The notes under the pieces: generated by a model
Databases searched by the model: none
Seen by the model: the letters and a program-made list of their open reading frames with translations, nothing else
What the model was told of the DNA's origin: nothing
Position numbers and translations under genes: made by a program
Assembly: GCA_964570065.1 (NCBI GenBank)
Contig: CAZMVZ010000002.1
Span: 20,813 to 84,812 of the forward strand
From: an uncultured Candidatus Poseidoniales archaeon
GTDB lineage: Archaea > Thermoplasmatota > Poseidoniia > Poseidoniales > Thalassarchaeaceae
Length of the DNA stretch: 64,000 nt
Direction: 5' to 3'
In this document: positions 21,659-62,920 of the stretch, piece by piece
Layout of the letters: each line of letters opens with the position of its first letter
How positions within the stretch are numbered: the stretch's first letter is position 1

Positions 21659-22117
21659 CTAATCCTTCAGCATCATCCTCAATTCCTCGACTGATCGCTG
21701 TTCATCGAAGTACACTACTTCCAGTGAATCATAAAGCTCTGTATCTCCAATTTTCTCCACTAATGGCAATATCTGACGATACGTCTCAACGGCTTTCTTT
21801 TCGGTTTCATATGCCTCAACCAGCATCTCCTTGTAGTTCGAAGTGTGGACAATTGGAGTATCATCACGCTCTGTAATTGCGGTGCCATCTAGTTTGACAA
21901 TTGCAGAACGGACAGTTGCAGCATGAGTAACGGATTCGTTTACCTCGTTGTTGAAATGGGCAGTTAAATGAAGCCTGTGAATACCAGAAACATATGCAGA
22001 GTAATGAGCATACAATGCTATTGCTCTGAGCTCCCATGCAAGTGCTCGATTGAGGGCATTGACAAGTTGCTTCTCCGACATCCCTTCTGCCTCAATGCTT
22101 GAATGGTGGCGAGTCAT
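21659..22117 (-). CDS. Ferritin-like / bacterioferritin-like four-helix-bundle protein
   Basis: 'LVNALNRALAWELRAIALYAHYS', 'NNEVNESVTHA' and 'EAYETEKKAVETY' fit E..E/H ferroxidase-type spacing. An alternative start is ATG 22081 ('MSEKQL'). Confidence 0.7.
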   Translation of the reverse strand: MTRHHSSIEAEGMSEKQLVNALNRALAWELRAIALYAHYSAYVSGIHRLHLTAHFNNEVNESVTHAATVRSAIVKLDGTAITERDDTPIVHTSNYKEMLVEAYETEKKAVETYRQILPLVEKIGDTELYDSLEVVYFDEQRSVEELRMMLKD

Positions 22118-22189
22118 ATCAACGCTCGCTTTGGGGGAAGATTTCAGATTGGCCGGAACATATGTGTCTTGGTCCTCTTTGGATGGGTC

Positions 22190-23692
22190 ATGGGTGCATA
22201 CGAAGAACTGCTTGTGAGGCTGAAGGATATTGACTTGATTGGGCAGATTGGAAGTCTTCTAAGCTGGGATCAAGAGGTACTAATGCCCCCCAAGGCTGCA
22301 CCATTGAGAGCAGAGCAGCTAGCATGGATCTCAAAGACCGCACATCAGAGACTCACTGACTCTAAGATTGGATCTTGGTTGGAAATGCTTGAGTCGGATG
22401 ATGATCTTAATGAGGTTCAGAGGGCGAATATTAGACTCGCAAGGGAGTCTTACGACAGAGCAACCAAGTTGCCGACAGAATTCGTCGAAGAGATGGCGAA
22501 GCACAGATCTAAGTCGCTTGTTTCTTGGACTGAAGCTCGTGAAAAGGACGATTTCTCTATTTTCCGAGATGACCTTGCCATAGCGATTGAGCACGCCCGG
22601 ATGAGGGCGGACTTCTATGGTTACGAAAACCTGCGATATGATGCGTTGCTTGACTTGTATGAAAGTGGTCTTACCGTGCAGAGGTTGGATCCTCTTTTCT
22701 CTGGCCTCAGGGACAATGTTGCCCCGCTAATCAGAGCGGTAGTTGAAAGTGGGAATAGGCCTGATATGTCATGGGTAGAGGGGAACTCTTGGGATCAGAC
22801 TGCTCAAGAAGAGTTGAGCCAGAGAGTTTCAGAAGCAATTGGCTTTGACTTCTCAGCGGGAAGGAGGGACCTGTCGACCCATCCTTTCTGTGGCGGACCA
22901 AATCCAGATGACGTTAGGTGGACAACTAGATACAGGGAAGACGAGCCCTTCGGTTCTTTATTTGGTTCGATGCATGAAACTGGGCACGGCACCTATGAAC
23001 AAGGGCGACCCAGAGACTTTGACTTCCAACCGGTCGGAAAGGCGAATGGACTGGGTGTTCATGAGAGTCAGAGTCGCCTTTGGGAGAACCAAGTAGGGAG
23101 GTCAAGGGAGTTTTGTGAGTGGTCCCTACCTCTTTGGAAGCAGTGCTTCCCGGACAACATGGAGGGGATTGGAGCTGAGCAGTTGTGGCAAGCAGTGAAT
23201 TTAGTAGAGCCTGGCCTAATTAGAGTAGATGCGGATGAGGCTACTTACAACTTACACATCATGATTAGGTATGAAATTGAAAAACAATTAATCGCAGGTG
23301 AAATAGAAGTTGACGAATTGCCTGACGCTTGGGATGAGATGTATCAGGAATACCTAGGAATAAAGGCCCCAAACCGTTCTCTTGGGGTTCTGCAGGATGT
23401 TCATTGGTCAATGGGTGCAATCGGTTACTTCCCCACATATACCCTGGGAAATCTATACGCAGCCCAACTACTTGAGGCTGCAAGGGAGGATCTGCCCGAT
23501 TATAATGGTCAGATTAGAAGCGGTCAATTCAGAAATCTTCTAGGTTGGATGAGAGAGAATGTCCACAACAGAGGGAGCGTGCTAAAACCAGCGAATCTAA
23601 TCGAAGAGGCTACTGGTTCGGCCCCATCTCCCGATGCTTTCGTAAGATACCTGACTTCGAAGGTAGAGAGGCTTTACGGGGTAAGTGCTTGA
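22190..23692 (+). CDS. Carboxypeptidase Taq-type metallopeptidase (M32)
   Basis: 'STHPFCGG', 'HETGHGTYEQG' (HExxH), 'HESQSRLWEN', 'IRVDADEATYNLHI' and 'GYFPTYTLGN' are present. I moved the start to ATG 22190 to avoid overlap with the ferritin-like gene. Confidence 0.85.
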   Translation: MGAYEELLVRLKDIDLIGQIGSLLSWDQEVLMPPKAAPLRAEQLAWISKTAHQRLTDSKIGSWLEMLESDDDLNEVQRANIRLARESYDRATKLPTEFVEEMAKHRSKSLVSWTEAREKDDFSIFRDDLAIAIEHARMRADFYGYENLRYDALLDLYESGLTVQRLDPLFSGLRDNVAPLIRAVVESGNRPDMSWVEGNSWDQTAQEELSQRVSEAIGFDFSAGRRDLSTHPFCGGPNPDDVRWTTRYREDEPFGSLFGSMHETGHGTYEQGRPRDFDFQPVGKANGLGVHESQSRLWENQVGRSREFCEWSLPLWKQCFPDNMEGIGAEQLWQAVNLVEPGLIRVDADEATYNLHIMIRYEIEKQLIAGEIEVDELPDAWDEMYQEYLGIKAPNRSLGVLQDVHWSMGAIGYFPTYTLGNLYAAQLLEAAREDLPDYNGQIRSGQFRNLLGWMRENVHNRGSVLKPANLIEEATGSAPSPDAFVRYLTSKVERLYGVSA

Positions 23693-23711: not shown

Positions 23712-24800
23712 ATGACTTTGGCAAGTCTGGAGAGTTATTCCTCCTACGTTAGAGAGGTTGACGGCGAATGCGTTTTCGTGAGGATTACGAATAATCTTCT
23801 TTTCTCGGGCTCCAGGTCTGGGGAAATTGCGTGTTGGGACATCCCCAGTGGCATGGAGATGTGGAGGTTGAGTTTTGAAGGACCGTGCTCCGATTCAGAC
23901 TGCGATAATGAAGTGTTTTTCTGTACTGAATCCGATAACATTCACGCAATTGCGACGGGTTCTGGCGATGTAATTTGGAGTCTCAAATTGGAAGGTTCGA
24001 GTGACTTTGTTCGCGTATCTAATGGATTTGTCTGGGTCACAACCTCGGTCTACAACTTTGAGATCCAAGACTACACAGAAGGGGCTGTCTGGCAAATCGA
24101 TTTTGAAGGAGAGTTGCGGAATAAGTGGGAGAACCCTGGCAGAGCATGGTCATTATCGGATCAGGGGGGTAAATTGGTAATGGGCCTCAGTCGCCCTAGA
24201 TCCGGTTATGCGCTAGTTTCTGATAGTGGGTTAGACTATCCGGAGTTGGAACATCCCCAACCGGTGACAATTGGAAACGGAGGAGGGGATGAGCCCGTAG
24301 TACTAGGTCATAGCAATGGGATGGTCACAGAGGTTGTTGGCCATAGAGTAGAGTCTGTTTCTCAAGTTGAGTCGTCGGTTCGAGCAATCGACTACTTTGG
24401 TGGTTGGGTAGTAGGAATGGATTCTGGAGGTGTTTCTTCTAGCGAATATTTTGGTTCGTGGTCCATTAATCTGAATGGCGAAATTGATGTTCTCTGTTTT
24501 GGCCCTTCGTTAGATTCTGACAAGGGCGTATGGGTACCTTCATCGAGAGATGGTAAATCTGTAATCTCACTGATTAATCCCAAGGGAGGAGTTGTGGAAA
24601 TGGAGACCTCCCATCATTCTAGAATTGTATCTGCTTTCAGTGATGAAGAGGTGATTTGCTTTGGAGATGATGCTGGTTGCATTTGCATTGTCGAGGGTGA
24701 TGTGCTTCGGCGTCGTTTCTCCAGACCAGTGGAAGAAATAGCAGAGGAAAATAGTAATTCGGAGCTGCGAAGGAAAATCCGCGGACTGCGCGGAGGTTAA
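23712..24800 (+). CDS. PQQ/WD40-like beta-propeller repeat protein
   Basis: Recurrent 'G.(I/V).(C/A).D...G...W' blades are seen, e.g. 'GEIACWDIPSGMEMWRL', 'IHAIATGSGDVIWSL' and 'GAVWQIDFEGELRNKW'. Confidence 0.6.
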   Translation: MTLASLESYSSYVREVDGECVFVRITNNLLFSGSRSGEIACWDIPSGMEMWRLSFEGPCSDSDCDNEVFFCTESDNIHAIATGSGDVIWSLKLEGSSDFVRVSNGFVWVTTSVYNFEIQDYTEGAVWQIDFEGELRNKWENPGRAWSLSDQGGKLVMGLSRPRSGYALVSDSGLDYPELEHPQPVTIGNGGGDEPVVLGHSNGMVTEVVGHRVESVSQVESSVRAIDYFGGWVVGMDSGGVSSSEYFGSWSINLNGEIDVLCFGPSLDSDKGVWVPSSRDGKSVISLINPKGGVVEMETSHHSRIVSAFSDEEVICFGDDAGCICIVEGDVLRRRFSRPVEEIAEENSNSELRRKIRGLRGG

Positions 24801-24879
24801 TTTGCAGTGGAAAAACACTCCCAATTACCTCTATTTCCAGTGAACTGCGACAATATTTACGAAACGTTTATGAGCCACC

Positions 24880-25485
24880 CATTACCCTGTGTTCTTTGCC
24901 GCTCCGGGGGAGTGGTGTGAGGGCGCTTCGGCGCGACTCGCGGGCCACAAAAACTGAGCCTCGAAACCGAGGCGGTAGAACCGAGAAACGAAAGGATCTC
25001 GGGGAAAGGCTGGAGCGTCTGTGGACGCGAAGGCCGCGGCGAATAAATCGGACGAACTGGAGGAAACGAAAGGGAGAGCGAGATAAGAGCTGAAGAGATA
25101 CATGTGCGTAGGGGGAAGAGAATAATCCTGGGTCACATAAGTGGGGAACGAAGGGGAGAGAACCGGAGGAAACGAAGGGGAAGGAAGCTGAGGGAAACAC
25201 TGGGCAACAAGGGCGGGGAGACCCGTGGAGAAGCCAGTATCGAGACGTGGAGGGAAAAGCGGAGACGAAGTACCCGAAACGGATGCGGCGAAAGAGAGAG
25301 AGATCTCACATGAGTCGGAAAATGACAAAGGAAGAGCACGAAGTTCCAGAGTCGTCTACCCGGGGAAACCTGGGCCTTCGGGCCCAGGTGACACCCGGAC
25401 CCTGCGGAGTTAACAGGGGGGGAAGCTCCCCCATGTGCGGAACCCCCTGTTGCTCCCACCTGATTCGGCCCATATTCTTCTTCTT
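24880..25485 (+). ncRNA. Candidate large structured non-coding RNA, family not recognised
   Basis: A 0.7-kb gap contains only low-complexity pseudo-ORFs and is strongly purine-rich on the + strand. Hairpins include cUUCGg at 24923-24934 and 25369-25388 (8 bp), cGGG-GAGA-CCCg at 25214-25225, and others at 24958-24973, 24981-25002 and 25015-25028. A 9-bp helix pairs 25412-25420 with 25443-25451. The 17-nt motif GGAGGAAACGAA(A/G)GGGA occurs at 25059 and 25165. A/T boxes lie at 24852-24873 upstream and a T-rich run at 25475-25485 downstream. Boundaries are approximate. Confidence 0.45.
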
Positions 25486-25510
25486 GACAGAAACGTAGTC
25501 GTCTGTCTTT

Positions 25511-27112
25511 TTACGAGCTCGGGCCTGTCATTTCCCTAGGTTTTACCCATTCTGTAAACTGATCATCGGTGAGAAGCTTGAGTTGGATTGCACTCTCTCT
25601 AAGGGTCAGCCCTTTCTCGTGAGCGTTCTTTGCAATTTTAGCAGCATTGTCGTACCCTATGTGAGGGTTTAGTGCAGTTACTAGCATCAATGAGTTCTCC
25701 AAATGGTCAGATATTTTCTCTTCGTTCGCTTTCAAACCGATAACACACTTGTCGGAGAAGGATACGCAAGTGTCGGAAAGTAGTCTTATGCTGTGCAAGA
25801 GGTTGTGAATCATCATTGGCTTGAATACATTCAACTCGAAGTTTCCCTGACTTCCGCCTATAGAAATTGCAGTGTGATTACCCATAACCTGGCAGCAAAC
25901 CATTGTCATCGCTTCCGATTGGGTTGGATTCACCTTTCCAGGCATGATACTTGATCCTGGCTCATTAGCTGGAAGAGCGATTTCTCCAAATCCGCACCTG
26001 GGCCCAGAACCTAGCCATCGAATATCATTGGCGATTTTCATGAGAGATGCTGAGAGGGCGTTGAGTGCCCCTGAGGCAGCGACTATGGCATCGTGTGCAG
26101 CGAGTTGGGCGAACTTGTTTTCGGCACTAATGAAAGGGAGGCCGGTCTTCTCGGCTATCTTCTTGGCGACCAAGTCTGCGAAGTCGGGATGGGTGTTCAG
26201 TCCCGTACCAACGGCAGTTCCGCCCAGAGCGAGTTCAAGTAGGTCATTCAGAGCTGTTTGGATCCTAATTAGGCCAGCATCCAACATCGAAACATATGCT
26301 CCGAACTCTTGGCCTAGAGTTAGCGGGACGGCATCCATCAGATGAGTTCGTCCAATCTTGACAATGTGTGCGAACTCATCTGCCTTTTCGGCCAGGGAAG
26401 TTCGAAGTTTCTGCACAGATGGGATGAGTCGGTGCTGGATCTCCTCTGCTGCAGCGATATGCATTGCAGTGGGGAACGTGTCATTGCTCGACTGGGCGCG
26501 GTTAACATGGTCATTCGGGTGGACTGGGGATTTGCTTCCCAGCTTCCCTCCTGAAGACTCTATGGCTCTATTTGCAATTACCTCATTTGCATTCATGTTA
26601 GTCTGGGTTCCCGAACCGGTCTGCCAAACCCTGAGTGGGAAATGGTCGTCAAGGGACCCAGAAATTACCTCTTCGCATGCCTGTGAAATGAGGTTTCCAA
26701 CATCATCGTCGAGAGATCCCAGAAGTACGTTTGTCTCGGCGGCTGCCTGCTTAAGAATCCCAAACGCTCGGATGACTGATCGGGGCATCTGGTCTTCACC
26801 GATATCGAAGTTGATTAGCGACCTAGCAGTTTGTGCGCCGAAATATCTGTCTGTTGGCACCTCAACCTCCCCCATAGTGTCTAGCTCAATCCTAACCTTA
26901 CCACGGACACCCTTGGGGGTCCTTGAAACGGGTGATTTGGTAGCTATCTGATGGGCATTGCCCCCGGTGAGCGAAGACTCAATCATCTTGGAGACAGTTG
27001 CCGATCTGCCCTTCTCACGTCCCTGACCAACCCGTGCATCCAATCTTCTAGCCAAATCCTCTGGAATGCTGACAGTGATTATTCTACGATCGCCGACTCT
27101 GTGCTTTGCCAT
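25511..27112 (-). CDS. fumC: Fumarate hydratase class II with an N-terminal ribbon-helix-helix-like extension of about 70 aa
   Basis: '[16 protein letters not shown]' is the signature, and '[25 protein letters not shown]' aligns to residue ~5 onward of E. coli FumC. The preceding 72 aa include '[20 protein letters not shown]...[13 protein letters not shown]' (beta-alpha-alpha, CopG-like). Confidence 0.9.
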
Positions 27113-62846: not shown

Positions 62847-62920
62847 TGGAGCACGAGCCGGGATTTGCACCCGGGTCCATGGATCTGCAGTCCATTGCAT
62901 AGCTGCTCTGCCACTCGTGC
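62847..62920 (-). tRNA. tRNA-Cys (GCA) with encoded CCA
   Basis: The minus-strand sequence is GCACGAG-UG-GCAGAGCAGCUAUGCA-AUGGA-CUGCAGA-UCCAU-GGAC-CCGGG-UGCAAAU-CCCGG-CUCGUGC-U-CCA. It has a 7-bp acceptor stem, a 5-bp anticodon stem, a 7-nt loop with U33 and the GCA anticodon, and the U73 discriminator characteristic of tRNA-Cys. Confidence 0.75.

Follow-up and report, generated by a model that had tools for sequence, protein, structure and literature searches.

A locus likely to encode a large structured non-coding RNA of an undescribed family in marine Thalassarchaeaceae

What is encoded in the 710-nt gap between a beta-propeller gene and fumC in a genome as tightly packed as that of a planktonic marine archaeon? 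The gap (24801-25510) belongs to a 64,000-nt stretch of contig CAZMVZ010000002.1 from an uncultured Candidatus Poseidoniales archaeon of the Thalassarchaeaceae; this whole stretch is called the window, and positions are counted from its first letter. When open reading frames (ORFs) of at least 150 aa were taken as a proxy for genes, the gap was the longest uncovered stretch of the window, and the next-longest (571 and 426 nt) both hold small real genes (glutaredoxin-, BolA- and thioredoxin-like). An earlier reading made from the letters alone (the sequence-only reading) had described the gap as the longest non-coding stretch and as ORF-free. The first description holds at the 150-aa threshold; the second does not, as ORFs of 65-148 aa overlap the gap on both strands, those of 100-148 aa being artefacts of composition. 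The same reading had proposed a large structured RNA of unrecognised family. Covariation, synteny, the lack of a conserved reading frame and the lack of an Rfam match now argue, with a probability of about 0.85, that the element is a gene for a structured non-coding RNA (ncRNA) of an undescribed family:

24898 to about 25480, + strand: ncRNA gene of about 580 nt, delimited by a conservation block and supported by a covarying fold of 130 pairs and a covariance-model match.

The 5' end of the RNA was placed at the onset of the invariant sequence GCCGCUCC, with GCCGCU at 24898, and the 3' end, which is approximate, falls inside an oligo-T tract. The locus had been called at 24880-25485, boundaries that were nearly right. 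The GC content of the locus is 0.55-0.60, compared with about 0.47 in the flanks, and its + strand is strongly purine-skewed (GC skew up to 0.49, AT skew up to 0.61); the RNA consists of 67% purines and only 11% U.

Homologous loci were collected by two routes. The upstream beta-propeller protein, used as the search anchor, led to five loci in metagenome-assembled genomes (MAGs) named Thalassarchaeaceae or Poseidoniales, and 16 further loci were reached via propeller homologues with identity down to 42%; together these form the protein-anchored set (L001-L021). An exact 21-mer from the 3' core of the element was searched in metagenome contigs and retrieved 109 loci, the sole false positive being L041 (Ga0256404_1010867), a chance match within an FtsK/EssC-like ORF of an unrelated high-GC organism. 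From the protein-anchored and pattern searches, 101 full-length copies were gathered, of which 91 were unique.

In the protein-anchored loci the gene order was M32 carboxypeptidase, propeller, a gap of 700-900 nt, and then convergent fumC and a peptidyl-prolyl isomerase gene; the exception was L014/L015, where PTH2 stands in place of fumC and the gap element is still present. The element occurs once per locus, on the same strand as the propeller gene and 101-120 nt (in a few cases 147-182 nt) downstream of it, at every locus with enough upstream sequence. The gap could be aligned end to end across the syntenic loci and was conserved far better than the surrounding genes. In 28 loci of the common length class, the median nucleotide identity to the window was 0.909 for the element, as against 0.753 for fumC, 0.753 for the M32 carboxypeptidase gene and 0.643 for the propeller gene, and the element exceeded fumC in 27 of the 28. 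Conservation in syntenic loci, on which the sequence-only reading had made its proposal depend, was plain from these values. RNAs of different length classes were 73-84% identical to each other.

A low-complexity protein, R/K/E/G-rich if read from the + strand or S/P/F-rich if read from the - strand, would be another possible content of the gap, and gene callers do report ORFs there; depending on the locus, the calls lie on the - strand (160-200 aa), lie on the + strand (62-141 aa) or are absent. Pieces of the RNA have even been deposited as 'hypothetical protein' on either strand (MDP6662084.1, MAK88940.1 and MAE97641.1). However, from one locus to the next the calls change strand, frame and length, and no ORF called in the RNA locus has a Pfam match on record. 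Nor is any frame on either strand consistently open in all 91 unique copies: taken frame by frame, the longest open stretch falls to a minimum of 26-74 codons. The unusual openness of all six frames follows from the composition, as any stop codon requires U on the one strand and A on its complement, and U makes up only 11% of the RNA (A 11% of the other strand); the same U-poor composition accounts for the 'hypothetical protein' annotations. The length classes differ by 82, 109, 131 and 177 nt, and indels such as those of 82, 109 and 131 nt are not multiples of 3, while the substitutions are compensatory in helices and not periodic by three. A protein-coding function is therefore scarcely credible, in agreement with the earlier dismissal of the ORFs as low-complexity artefacts. 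Gene calls overlapping the RNA were seen at L006 (4120-4722), L012 (4180-4734), L016 (4450-4755), L131 (4784-5209) and equivalent positions elsewhere.

Support for an RNA product came from the consensus fold. Alignment A1, composed of 45 unique copies of the 553-nt class, was folded with RNAalifold, and the consensus contained 130 pairs in 30 helices. Compensatory double changes were found at 29 pairs, compared with 14.4±1.9 in shuffled alignments, and none of 500 shuffles reached 29; in a control in which the partners were slid by 1-3 columns, only 2-7 such pairs remained. Likewise, 99.4% of the A1 pair cells were paired (96.9% in shuffles), and the covariation score was 0.128 (0.080 in shuffles, 0/500 as high). 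Ten consensus pairs are predominantly G-U and would read as A·C mismatches in the complement, which assigns the RNA to the + strand; the minimum free energy z-score, based on only 20 shuffles, was -3.1 for the + strand and -1.3 for the - strand. The sequence-only reading had also favoured the + strand as the transcript. The elements of the fold are as follows, with pairs numbered as in A1:

24898-24916 and 24917-24941, + strand: two 5' hairpins, H1 and the UUCG-capped H2, supported by covariation in 81 copies.
24923-24934, + strand: GCGC-UUCG-GCGC, the apex of H2.
24942-25034, + strand: 5' domain, in which pairs 64-73, 61-76 and 84-105 covary.
24942-45, + strand: GGGC, the 5' strand of a tentative closing helix.
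24953-24976, 24981-25002 and 25009-25034, + strand: hairpins of the 5' domain.
25037-25092, + strand: module arm 1 with the first copy of a 17-nt motif, in which pairs 170-175 and 166-179 vary.
25097-25241, + strand: central domain, closed by GAUAC/GUAUC, with covarying pairs.
25103-25137, 25140-25201 and 25213-25226, + strand: contents of the central domain, namely a hairpin, module arm 2 with the second motif copy, and a GAGA-capped GNRA hairpin.
25246-25281, 25286-25317 and 25324-25353, + strand: three stem-loops with double changes.
25360-25458, + strand: near-invariant 3' domain, supported by its invariance and by an A-U/G-C swap.
25360-63 with 25395-98, + strand: CCGG/CCGG bracketing helix, enclosing a UUCG hairpin.
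25369-25388, + strand: this UUCG hairpin, CCUGGGCC-UUCG-GGCCCAGG, whose third pair (485-500) is C-G in 25 copies and U-A in 20.
25403-25420 with 25443-25458, + strand: 16-pair helix, enclosing a two-pair GC/GC mini-helix and a C-rich loop.
25427-25436, + strand: the C-rich loop UCCCCCAUGU, 10 nt, kept in the divergent members L131 and L133.

Within A1, pair 64-73 of the hairpin at 24953-24976 was C-G in 23 copies and U-A in 21. The tetraloop-closing pair was G-C in 31 and C-G in 14 for the first motif copy (170-175), and C-G in 24 and G-C in 21 for the second (278-283); pair 166-179 of module arm 1 was C-G, U-G or U-A, and pair 250-312 of module arm 2 was A-U in 29 and G-C in 12. Three consecutive pairs of the helix at 25103-25137 (211-245, 212-244 and 213-243) all covary, as do pairs 326-328 with 333-335 in the central domain, and the double changes in the three stem-loops between 25246 and 25353 fall on pairs 372-379, 373-378, 410-419, 411-418, 443-460 and 445-458. 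A second alignment held the 5' plus 3' parts of 81 diverse copies. There, H1 pair 8-12 was C-G in 64 and U-A in 17, and in H2 pair 23-42 was A-U in 48 copies but G-C in the remaining 33, with covariation at another two pairs of this hairpin. In the 3' helix AACAGGGGG/CCCCCUGUU, the A-U pair (48 copies) within AACAG/CUGUU was swapped for G-C in the other 33.

All hairpins that the sequence-only reading had listed were present at the positions it gave and lie inside the covariation-supported fold, including those at 24958-24973, 24981-25002 and 25015-25028; its 9-bp helix, AACAGGGGG/CCCCCUGUU, is real by the swap in 33 of 81 copies. Its further suggestion, that the G-run of this helix could alternatively pair with CUCCCCC, found no support, as the long helix covaries and the C-run forms a conserved hairpin loop. 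Pseudoknots of the C-rich loop with GGGGGAG of H1, with the variable loop GGGGGAAG (25112-25120) or with GGGGA of the modules were judged by eye and rejected, as was one between CCCAC of the 3' tail and GUGGG at 25141-45, because either complementarity was lost in variants or all partners were invariant.

The 3' domain contains about 68 nt that do not vary in any of the protein-anchored syntenic loci, and the 5' domain is near-invariant, both domains being more than 90% identical. The arms between them consist of short helices (2-4 bp) interrupted by internal loops that are symmetric and rich in purines, and each ends in a repeat module. In module arm 1, for example, the short helices CGGC/GCUG, UCG/CGA and CU/AG alternate with such loops up to the tip GGA-G(GAAA)C-GAA. 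The module consensus is C(Y)-GGA-S(GNRA)S-GAA-GG, with the flanking GGA...GAAGGGGA almost invariant. Across 285 module instances the loop-closing pair was C-G in 170 and G-C in 98, and the loop was GCAA in 115, GAAA in 86 and GUAA in 17, with occasional UUCG or CUUG. The 17-nt repeat noticed earlier is genuine: it is a hairpin module in which the loop is closed by G-C in some copies and by C-G in others. Each RNA carries one to six copies, and this difference in copy number between lineages accounts for the variation in total length, from about 550 to about 840 nt (about 553 to about 840 nt when measured as far as the 3' core); the long forms contain near-tandem runs, e.g. GGAGAGAACYGGAGAGAACUGGACGCAAGGAAGGGGAAGGAAGGGGAAGGAAGCGG. 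A kink-turn (K-turn) was considered and rejected for the module, which does not follow the pattern of C-stem, 3-nt bulge and G·A-A·G; by inference only, it better fits a 3x3 tandem G·A loop (5'-GGA/5'-GAA). The RNA is a conserved core with expansion-segment-like peripheral modules that vary in copy number. Both its 11% U and a GA/GNRA module that varies in copy number are uncommon in the design of a folded RNA.

Comparison with known families was made with Rfam 15 (4227 families) at three settings: the whole window was searched at gathering thresholds, 24700-25600 under permissive filters with a limit of E<=10, and eight divergent homologous loci with a limit of E<=1. No family matched the RNA in the window or in the eight loci, including the models for OLE, GOLLD, ROOL, HEARO, raiA and IMES-1 to IMES-4, so that the cmscan check left the family as unrecognised as the sequence-only reading had called it. 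A sub-threshold match to Scr5676 on the - strand (E = 1.1, 17.6 bits against a gathering score of 56) was attributed to chance.

A single-copy RNA with rRNA-like conservation, a stable-looking fold and a conserved core with a variable periphery might also be a highly divergent, expanded RNase P or signal recognition particle (SRP) RNA; metagenome assembly breaks and lineage-specific peripheral insertions are further points of likeness. The present RNA, however, is about twice as long and limited to one family. The archaeal RNase P model (RF00373) captures the P1-P4 core with the pseudoknot of CR-I (GAGGAAAGUCC) and CR-V (ACAGAA), and the SRP model (RF01857) covers about 300 nt, with the Alu domain, helix 5, and helices 6 and 8 with the SRP54-binding loops. 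Neither model matched the locus in the window, even when the filters were permissive and the limit was E<=10, nor the eight homologous loci at E<=1, and the P4/CR-I/CR-V and SRP helix-8 signatures were absent by inspection, as the sequence-only reading had stated when it noted the greater length. The likeness of GGAGGAAACGAA to CR-I is superficial; GGACGCAAGGAA takes its place in other lineages. Moreover, Marine Group II (MGII) metatranscriptomes contain a canonical RNase P RNA of 292-306 nt matching RF00373 and a canonical SRP RNA of 305-315 nt matching RF01857 (Hou et al. 2016, PMC5069720). With both RNAs expressed separately in MGII, the present RNA is neither, and this identity is effectively refuted.

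The same metatranscriptomic study of the Red Sea reported Tan1 (Thalassoarchaea ncRNA 1), a highly abundant 229-nt ncRNA with a 'complex secondary structure', whose homologues, 75-79% identical, were found only in Ca. Thalassoarchaea (MGIIb) contigs (PMC5069720). The present RNA could be, or contain, Tan1, in which case it would be already known, reported too short and never characterised. Host clade, predicted complexity and the apparent lack of an Rfam family agree, and the 75-79% identity of the homologues resembles the 73-84% between length classes here. On the other side, 229 nt falls far short of 550-840 nt, the first 229 nt of the present RNA are conserved far above 75-79% in most of the family (the 5' and 3' domains exceed 90%), and Rfam 15 holds no matching family. 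By this comparison, which is one of descriptions only, identity with Tan1 is unlikely. The literature on large ncRNAs of MGII, Poseidoniales or Thermoplasmatota yielded no described candidate besides Tan1, and a study of MGII transcription (Damashek et al. 2021, PMC9723583) gave no information on non-coding loci. Subject to the caveat of Tan1, the RNA appears to be the first described member of its family.

Whether the RNA would be transcribed on its own was judged from the sequences around it:

24804-24849, no strand assigned: conserved inverted repeat GCAGTGGAAA...N20...TTTCCAGTGAACTGCG, kept in all diverse Thalassarchaeaceae loci.
24860-24872, + strand: predicted promoter, with a B recognition element (BRE)-like CGAAACG and a TATA box TTTATG, conserved at fixed spacing.
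25467-25485, + strand: 3' end, with a conserved GGCCC and then the T-rich tract TATTCTTCTTCTT, recurring in most loci.

The block GAAA(C/G/T)G-TTTA(T/A)G occurs at fixed spacing in all loci, and the 24 nt or so from there to +1 are variable. The centre of the TATA box lies about 28 nt before the invariant 5' end, and the start is of the pyrimidine-purine type. Archaeal BRE/TATA geometry was the basis of the assignment, and the conserved block fits the promoter of the RNA gene. It is not an extension of the propeller gene, since distant loci do not conserve the DNA that encodes the propeller C-terminus. The sequence-only reading had proposed two TATA-like boxes, of which the one at 24866-24873 (TTTATG) is conserved and the one at 24852-24859 is not. 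The T-rich tract that it placed downstream, which lies at 25473-25485, recurs as oligo-T after the 3' end: in most loci, G(G/A)CCC is followed by a T-run within 3-10 nt, and the tract is likely to be an archaeal terminator. The inverted repeat sits between the propeller stop codon (24798-24800) and the predicted promoter. An RNA hairpin was rejected for it, as its arms show no covariation, which suggests a site acting at the DNA level; it is a candidate, and probable, binding site for a regulator that controls transcription of the RNA gene.

These flanks also bear on the idea that the block is a cis part of a neighbouring mRNA, either a long structured 3' untranslated region (UTR) or processed 3' fragment of the propeller mRNA, or an element that affects the convergent fumC through antisense action or termination. 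Its linkage to the propeller gene is invariable in strand and distance (101-120 nt), and its 3' end converges on the fumC stop codon to within about 30 nt. Against this, the conserved BRE/TATA block is correctly spaced from the 5' end, an element of a different kind lies between the propeller stop codon and the TATA box, and the RNA is conserved far above the propeller gene that it would serve. It also persists where PTH2 replaces fumC (L014/L015), and a covarying structure of 580-840 nt far exceeds the needs of a UTR. A cis element is therefore very unlikely.

The distribution of the family was examined with a covariance model, R1, built from the 5' 147 nt of 37 diverse copies. In the window R1 gave one match only (24898-25044, + strand, 164.8 bits), and it matched the divergent homologues L133 (131 bits), L131 (117 bits) and L036 (132 bits) with E of 1e-34 to 1e-39. 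L131 and L133, which have an altered 3' core, were the two more divergent members obtained in a second protein search that started from a distant propeller. R1 gave no match in L041 or in L132, a Poseidoniaceae-like (MGIIa) locus on contig Ga0308025_1000484, where a propeller paralogue (31% identity) has other, MGIIa-like surroundings and precedes a real membrane-protein ORF; inspection of L132 revealed no copy either. The names of the flanking proteins put all length classes in Thalassarchaeaceae, Ca. Thalassarchaeum or Poseidoniales. So far, then, the RNA family has been found only in Thalassarchaeaceae (MGIIb, Poseidoniales); it may be restricted to MGIIb, or it may reside elsewhere in MGIIa genomes. 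The pattern of the 3' core had no match in viral contigs, giving no sign of a phage or mobile origin. Of the 80 listed metagenome contigs, at least 14 begin or end inside the element, and so do MAG contigs L002 and L005; these are assembly breaks like those at rRNA operons, consistent with near-identical sequence shared among co-occurring strains. The loci broken within the RNA gene are L002, L005, L023-L025, L033, L040, L042, L045, L051, L066, L075, L077, L085, L089 and L097.

Our favoured overall explanation, which we consider highly probable, is an independently transcribed, large, structured + strand ncRNA; as to mechanism, a trans-acting scaffold is proposed. The RNA would be transcribed from its own promoter, be stable and act in trans. 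Its invariant core, including the exposed C-rich loop, would contact a conserved partner, either protein or RNA, and the GA-rich tetraloop modules would be peripheral, multivalent docking or assembly elements that engage other RNAs through their tetraloops or bind protein, comparable to expansion segments around an RNase P or rRNA core. Taking a structured ncRNA gene of undescribed family as given, a scaffold or ribonucleoprotein (RNP) role, suggested by analogy, has somewhat less than an even chance; a protein-titrating regulator is a minority prospect, a ribozyme a slimmer one, and other roles share the remainder. A speculative and rather improbable extension is that the RNA founds a new kind of large functional RNA in Archaea, acting either as a ribozyme or as an RNA or RNP machine that assembles itself, possibly together with the adjacent propeller protein; with its invariant core and varying number of GA-rich tetraloop modules, it would be specific to a group that ranks among the most abundant archaea of the surface ocean.

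Several points weigh against this explanation. The transcription, exact ends and stability of the RNA are inferred, and the scaffold mechanism is argued by analogy only. The most conserved helices (the long 3' helix, H1 and H2 in the 553-nt class, and the closing helix) do not vary in most of the sequences and therefore show little covariation. For the closing helix, two candidate pairings are indistinguishable: GGGC at 24942-45 may pair with the 3'-terminal GCCC at 25468-71, as RNAalifold predicted in the 553-nt class, or with CCC of the invariant GGACCCUGCGG, as in the diverse 81-copy alignment. Retrieval by an exact 21-mer of the 3' core inflates the apparent invariance of that core among the metagenome loci; in the protein-anchored loci (L001-L021), which this bias does not affect, the core is invariant all the same. 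Finally, the published Tan1 (229 nt) might overlap the present RNA.

Catalysis deserves separate consideration, with the invariant 5' and 3' core as an active site and the modules as peripheral stabilisers. In bacteria, large size combined with ornate structure and extreme conservation has been argued to mark ribozymes, and the present RNA shares the size, the ornate structure, the extreme conservation of the core (about 68 nt invariant in the 3' domain) and the variable periphery. No substrate, cleavage site or processing signature is visible, however, and OLE, ROOL and GOLLD have so far, and recently, been shown to be RNP components or homo-oligomeric, self-assembling RNA complexes (PMC12286853, PMC9723947). 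A catalytic RNA is thus decidedly unlikely, and the trans-acting scaffold is retained as the working explanation.

By kind, the closest RNAs are OLE (about 600 nt), ROOL (about 580 nt), GOLLD (about 800 nt), raiA and HEARO, which are of similar size. Like these bacterial ornate RNAs, the present one combines many covarying helices with highly conserved unpaired nucleotides and abundant GNRA and UUCG loops, has a narrow phylogenetic range, a stand-alone gene and no obvious target, and was discovered as a GC- and structure-rich gap between ORFs. It differs in being archaeal with a predicted BRE/TATA promoter, in its composition (67% purines, 11% U) and in its hairpin module of variable copy number; whereas GOLLD, ROOL and HEARO occur in phage or mobile contexts, it lies in fixed chromosomal synteny. 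The CsrB/RsmZ sponges resemble it in carrying a variable number (here one to six) of short GGA-containing hairpin motifs along one RNA. A sponge of that type was nevertheless rejected: the hairpin loops here are interchangeable stable tetraloops (GNRA, with a few CUUG or UUCG), the GGA is placed in a stem-internal 3x3 GA loop and not exposed in the hairpin loop, and the RNA has a large invariant core. To our knowledge, archaea also lack CsrA.

Few RNAs are at once large (>500 nt), intricately structured and conserved to an rRNA-like degree, and historically such RNAs have proved to be ribozymes, RNP cores or, recently, self-assembling RNA cages; we know of almost no such large RNA of unknown function from Archaea. 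The host, MGIIb, comprises uncultivated archaea that can form a large share of surface-ocean plankton, and the RNA, if abundant and unrecognised, would affect the reading of marine metatranscriptomes. In practical terms, the locus is mis-annotated as 'hypothetical proteins' on either strand and breaks metagenome assemblies, and the family alignment and covariance model make the role of the RNA testable.

The genes that flank the RNA are the following:

22103-23692, + strand: M32 carboxypeptidase gene, with a longest ORF of 529 aa.
23712-24800, + strand: PQQ-like beta-propeller gene (PF13360), with a cytoplasmic product.
25511-27112, - strand: fumC, with an N-terminal extension of about 80 aa without a Pfam match and Lyase_1 from residue 81.

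The propeller protein evolves very fast, with 26-96% aa identity to that of the window, compared with 73-98% for its neighbours. Its C-terminus (about 24750-24797; L006-L088) nevertheless always keeps a conserved acidic linker and an Arg-rich helix, (L/I)RxRhRxLR, even at 26-40% overall identity, as in ELRRKIRGLRSG, EIRARLRMLRNR and RLMERLRQLRSA. Constant adjacency makes this protein a possible partner of the RNA, as a lead and not as evidence. A hairpin flagged by the terminator scan in the last propeller codons (UCCGCG-GACUG-CGCGGA, 24778-24794) is conserved only among close relatives and is probably incidental. Homologous M32 carboxypeptidase loci are called at 500 aa, so the upstream start in the window is probably unused. 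For fumC, the 533-aa form is standard in these archaea, and some annotations start at 491 aa. Elsewhere in the 64-kb window, a tRNA-Cys(GCA) at 62847-62920 on the - strand was the sole Rfam or ARAGORN match.

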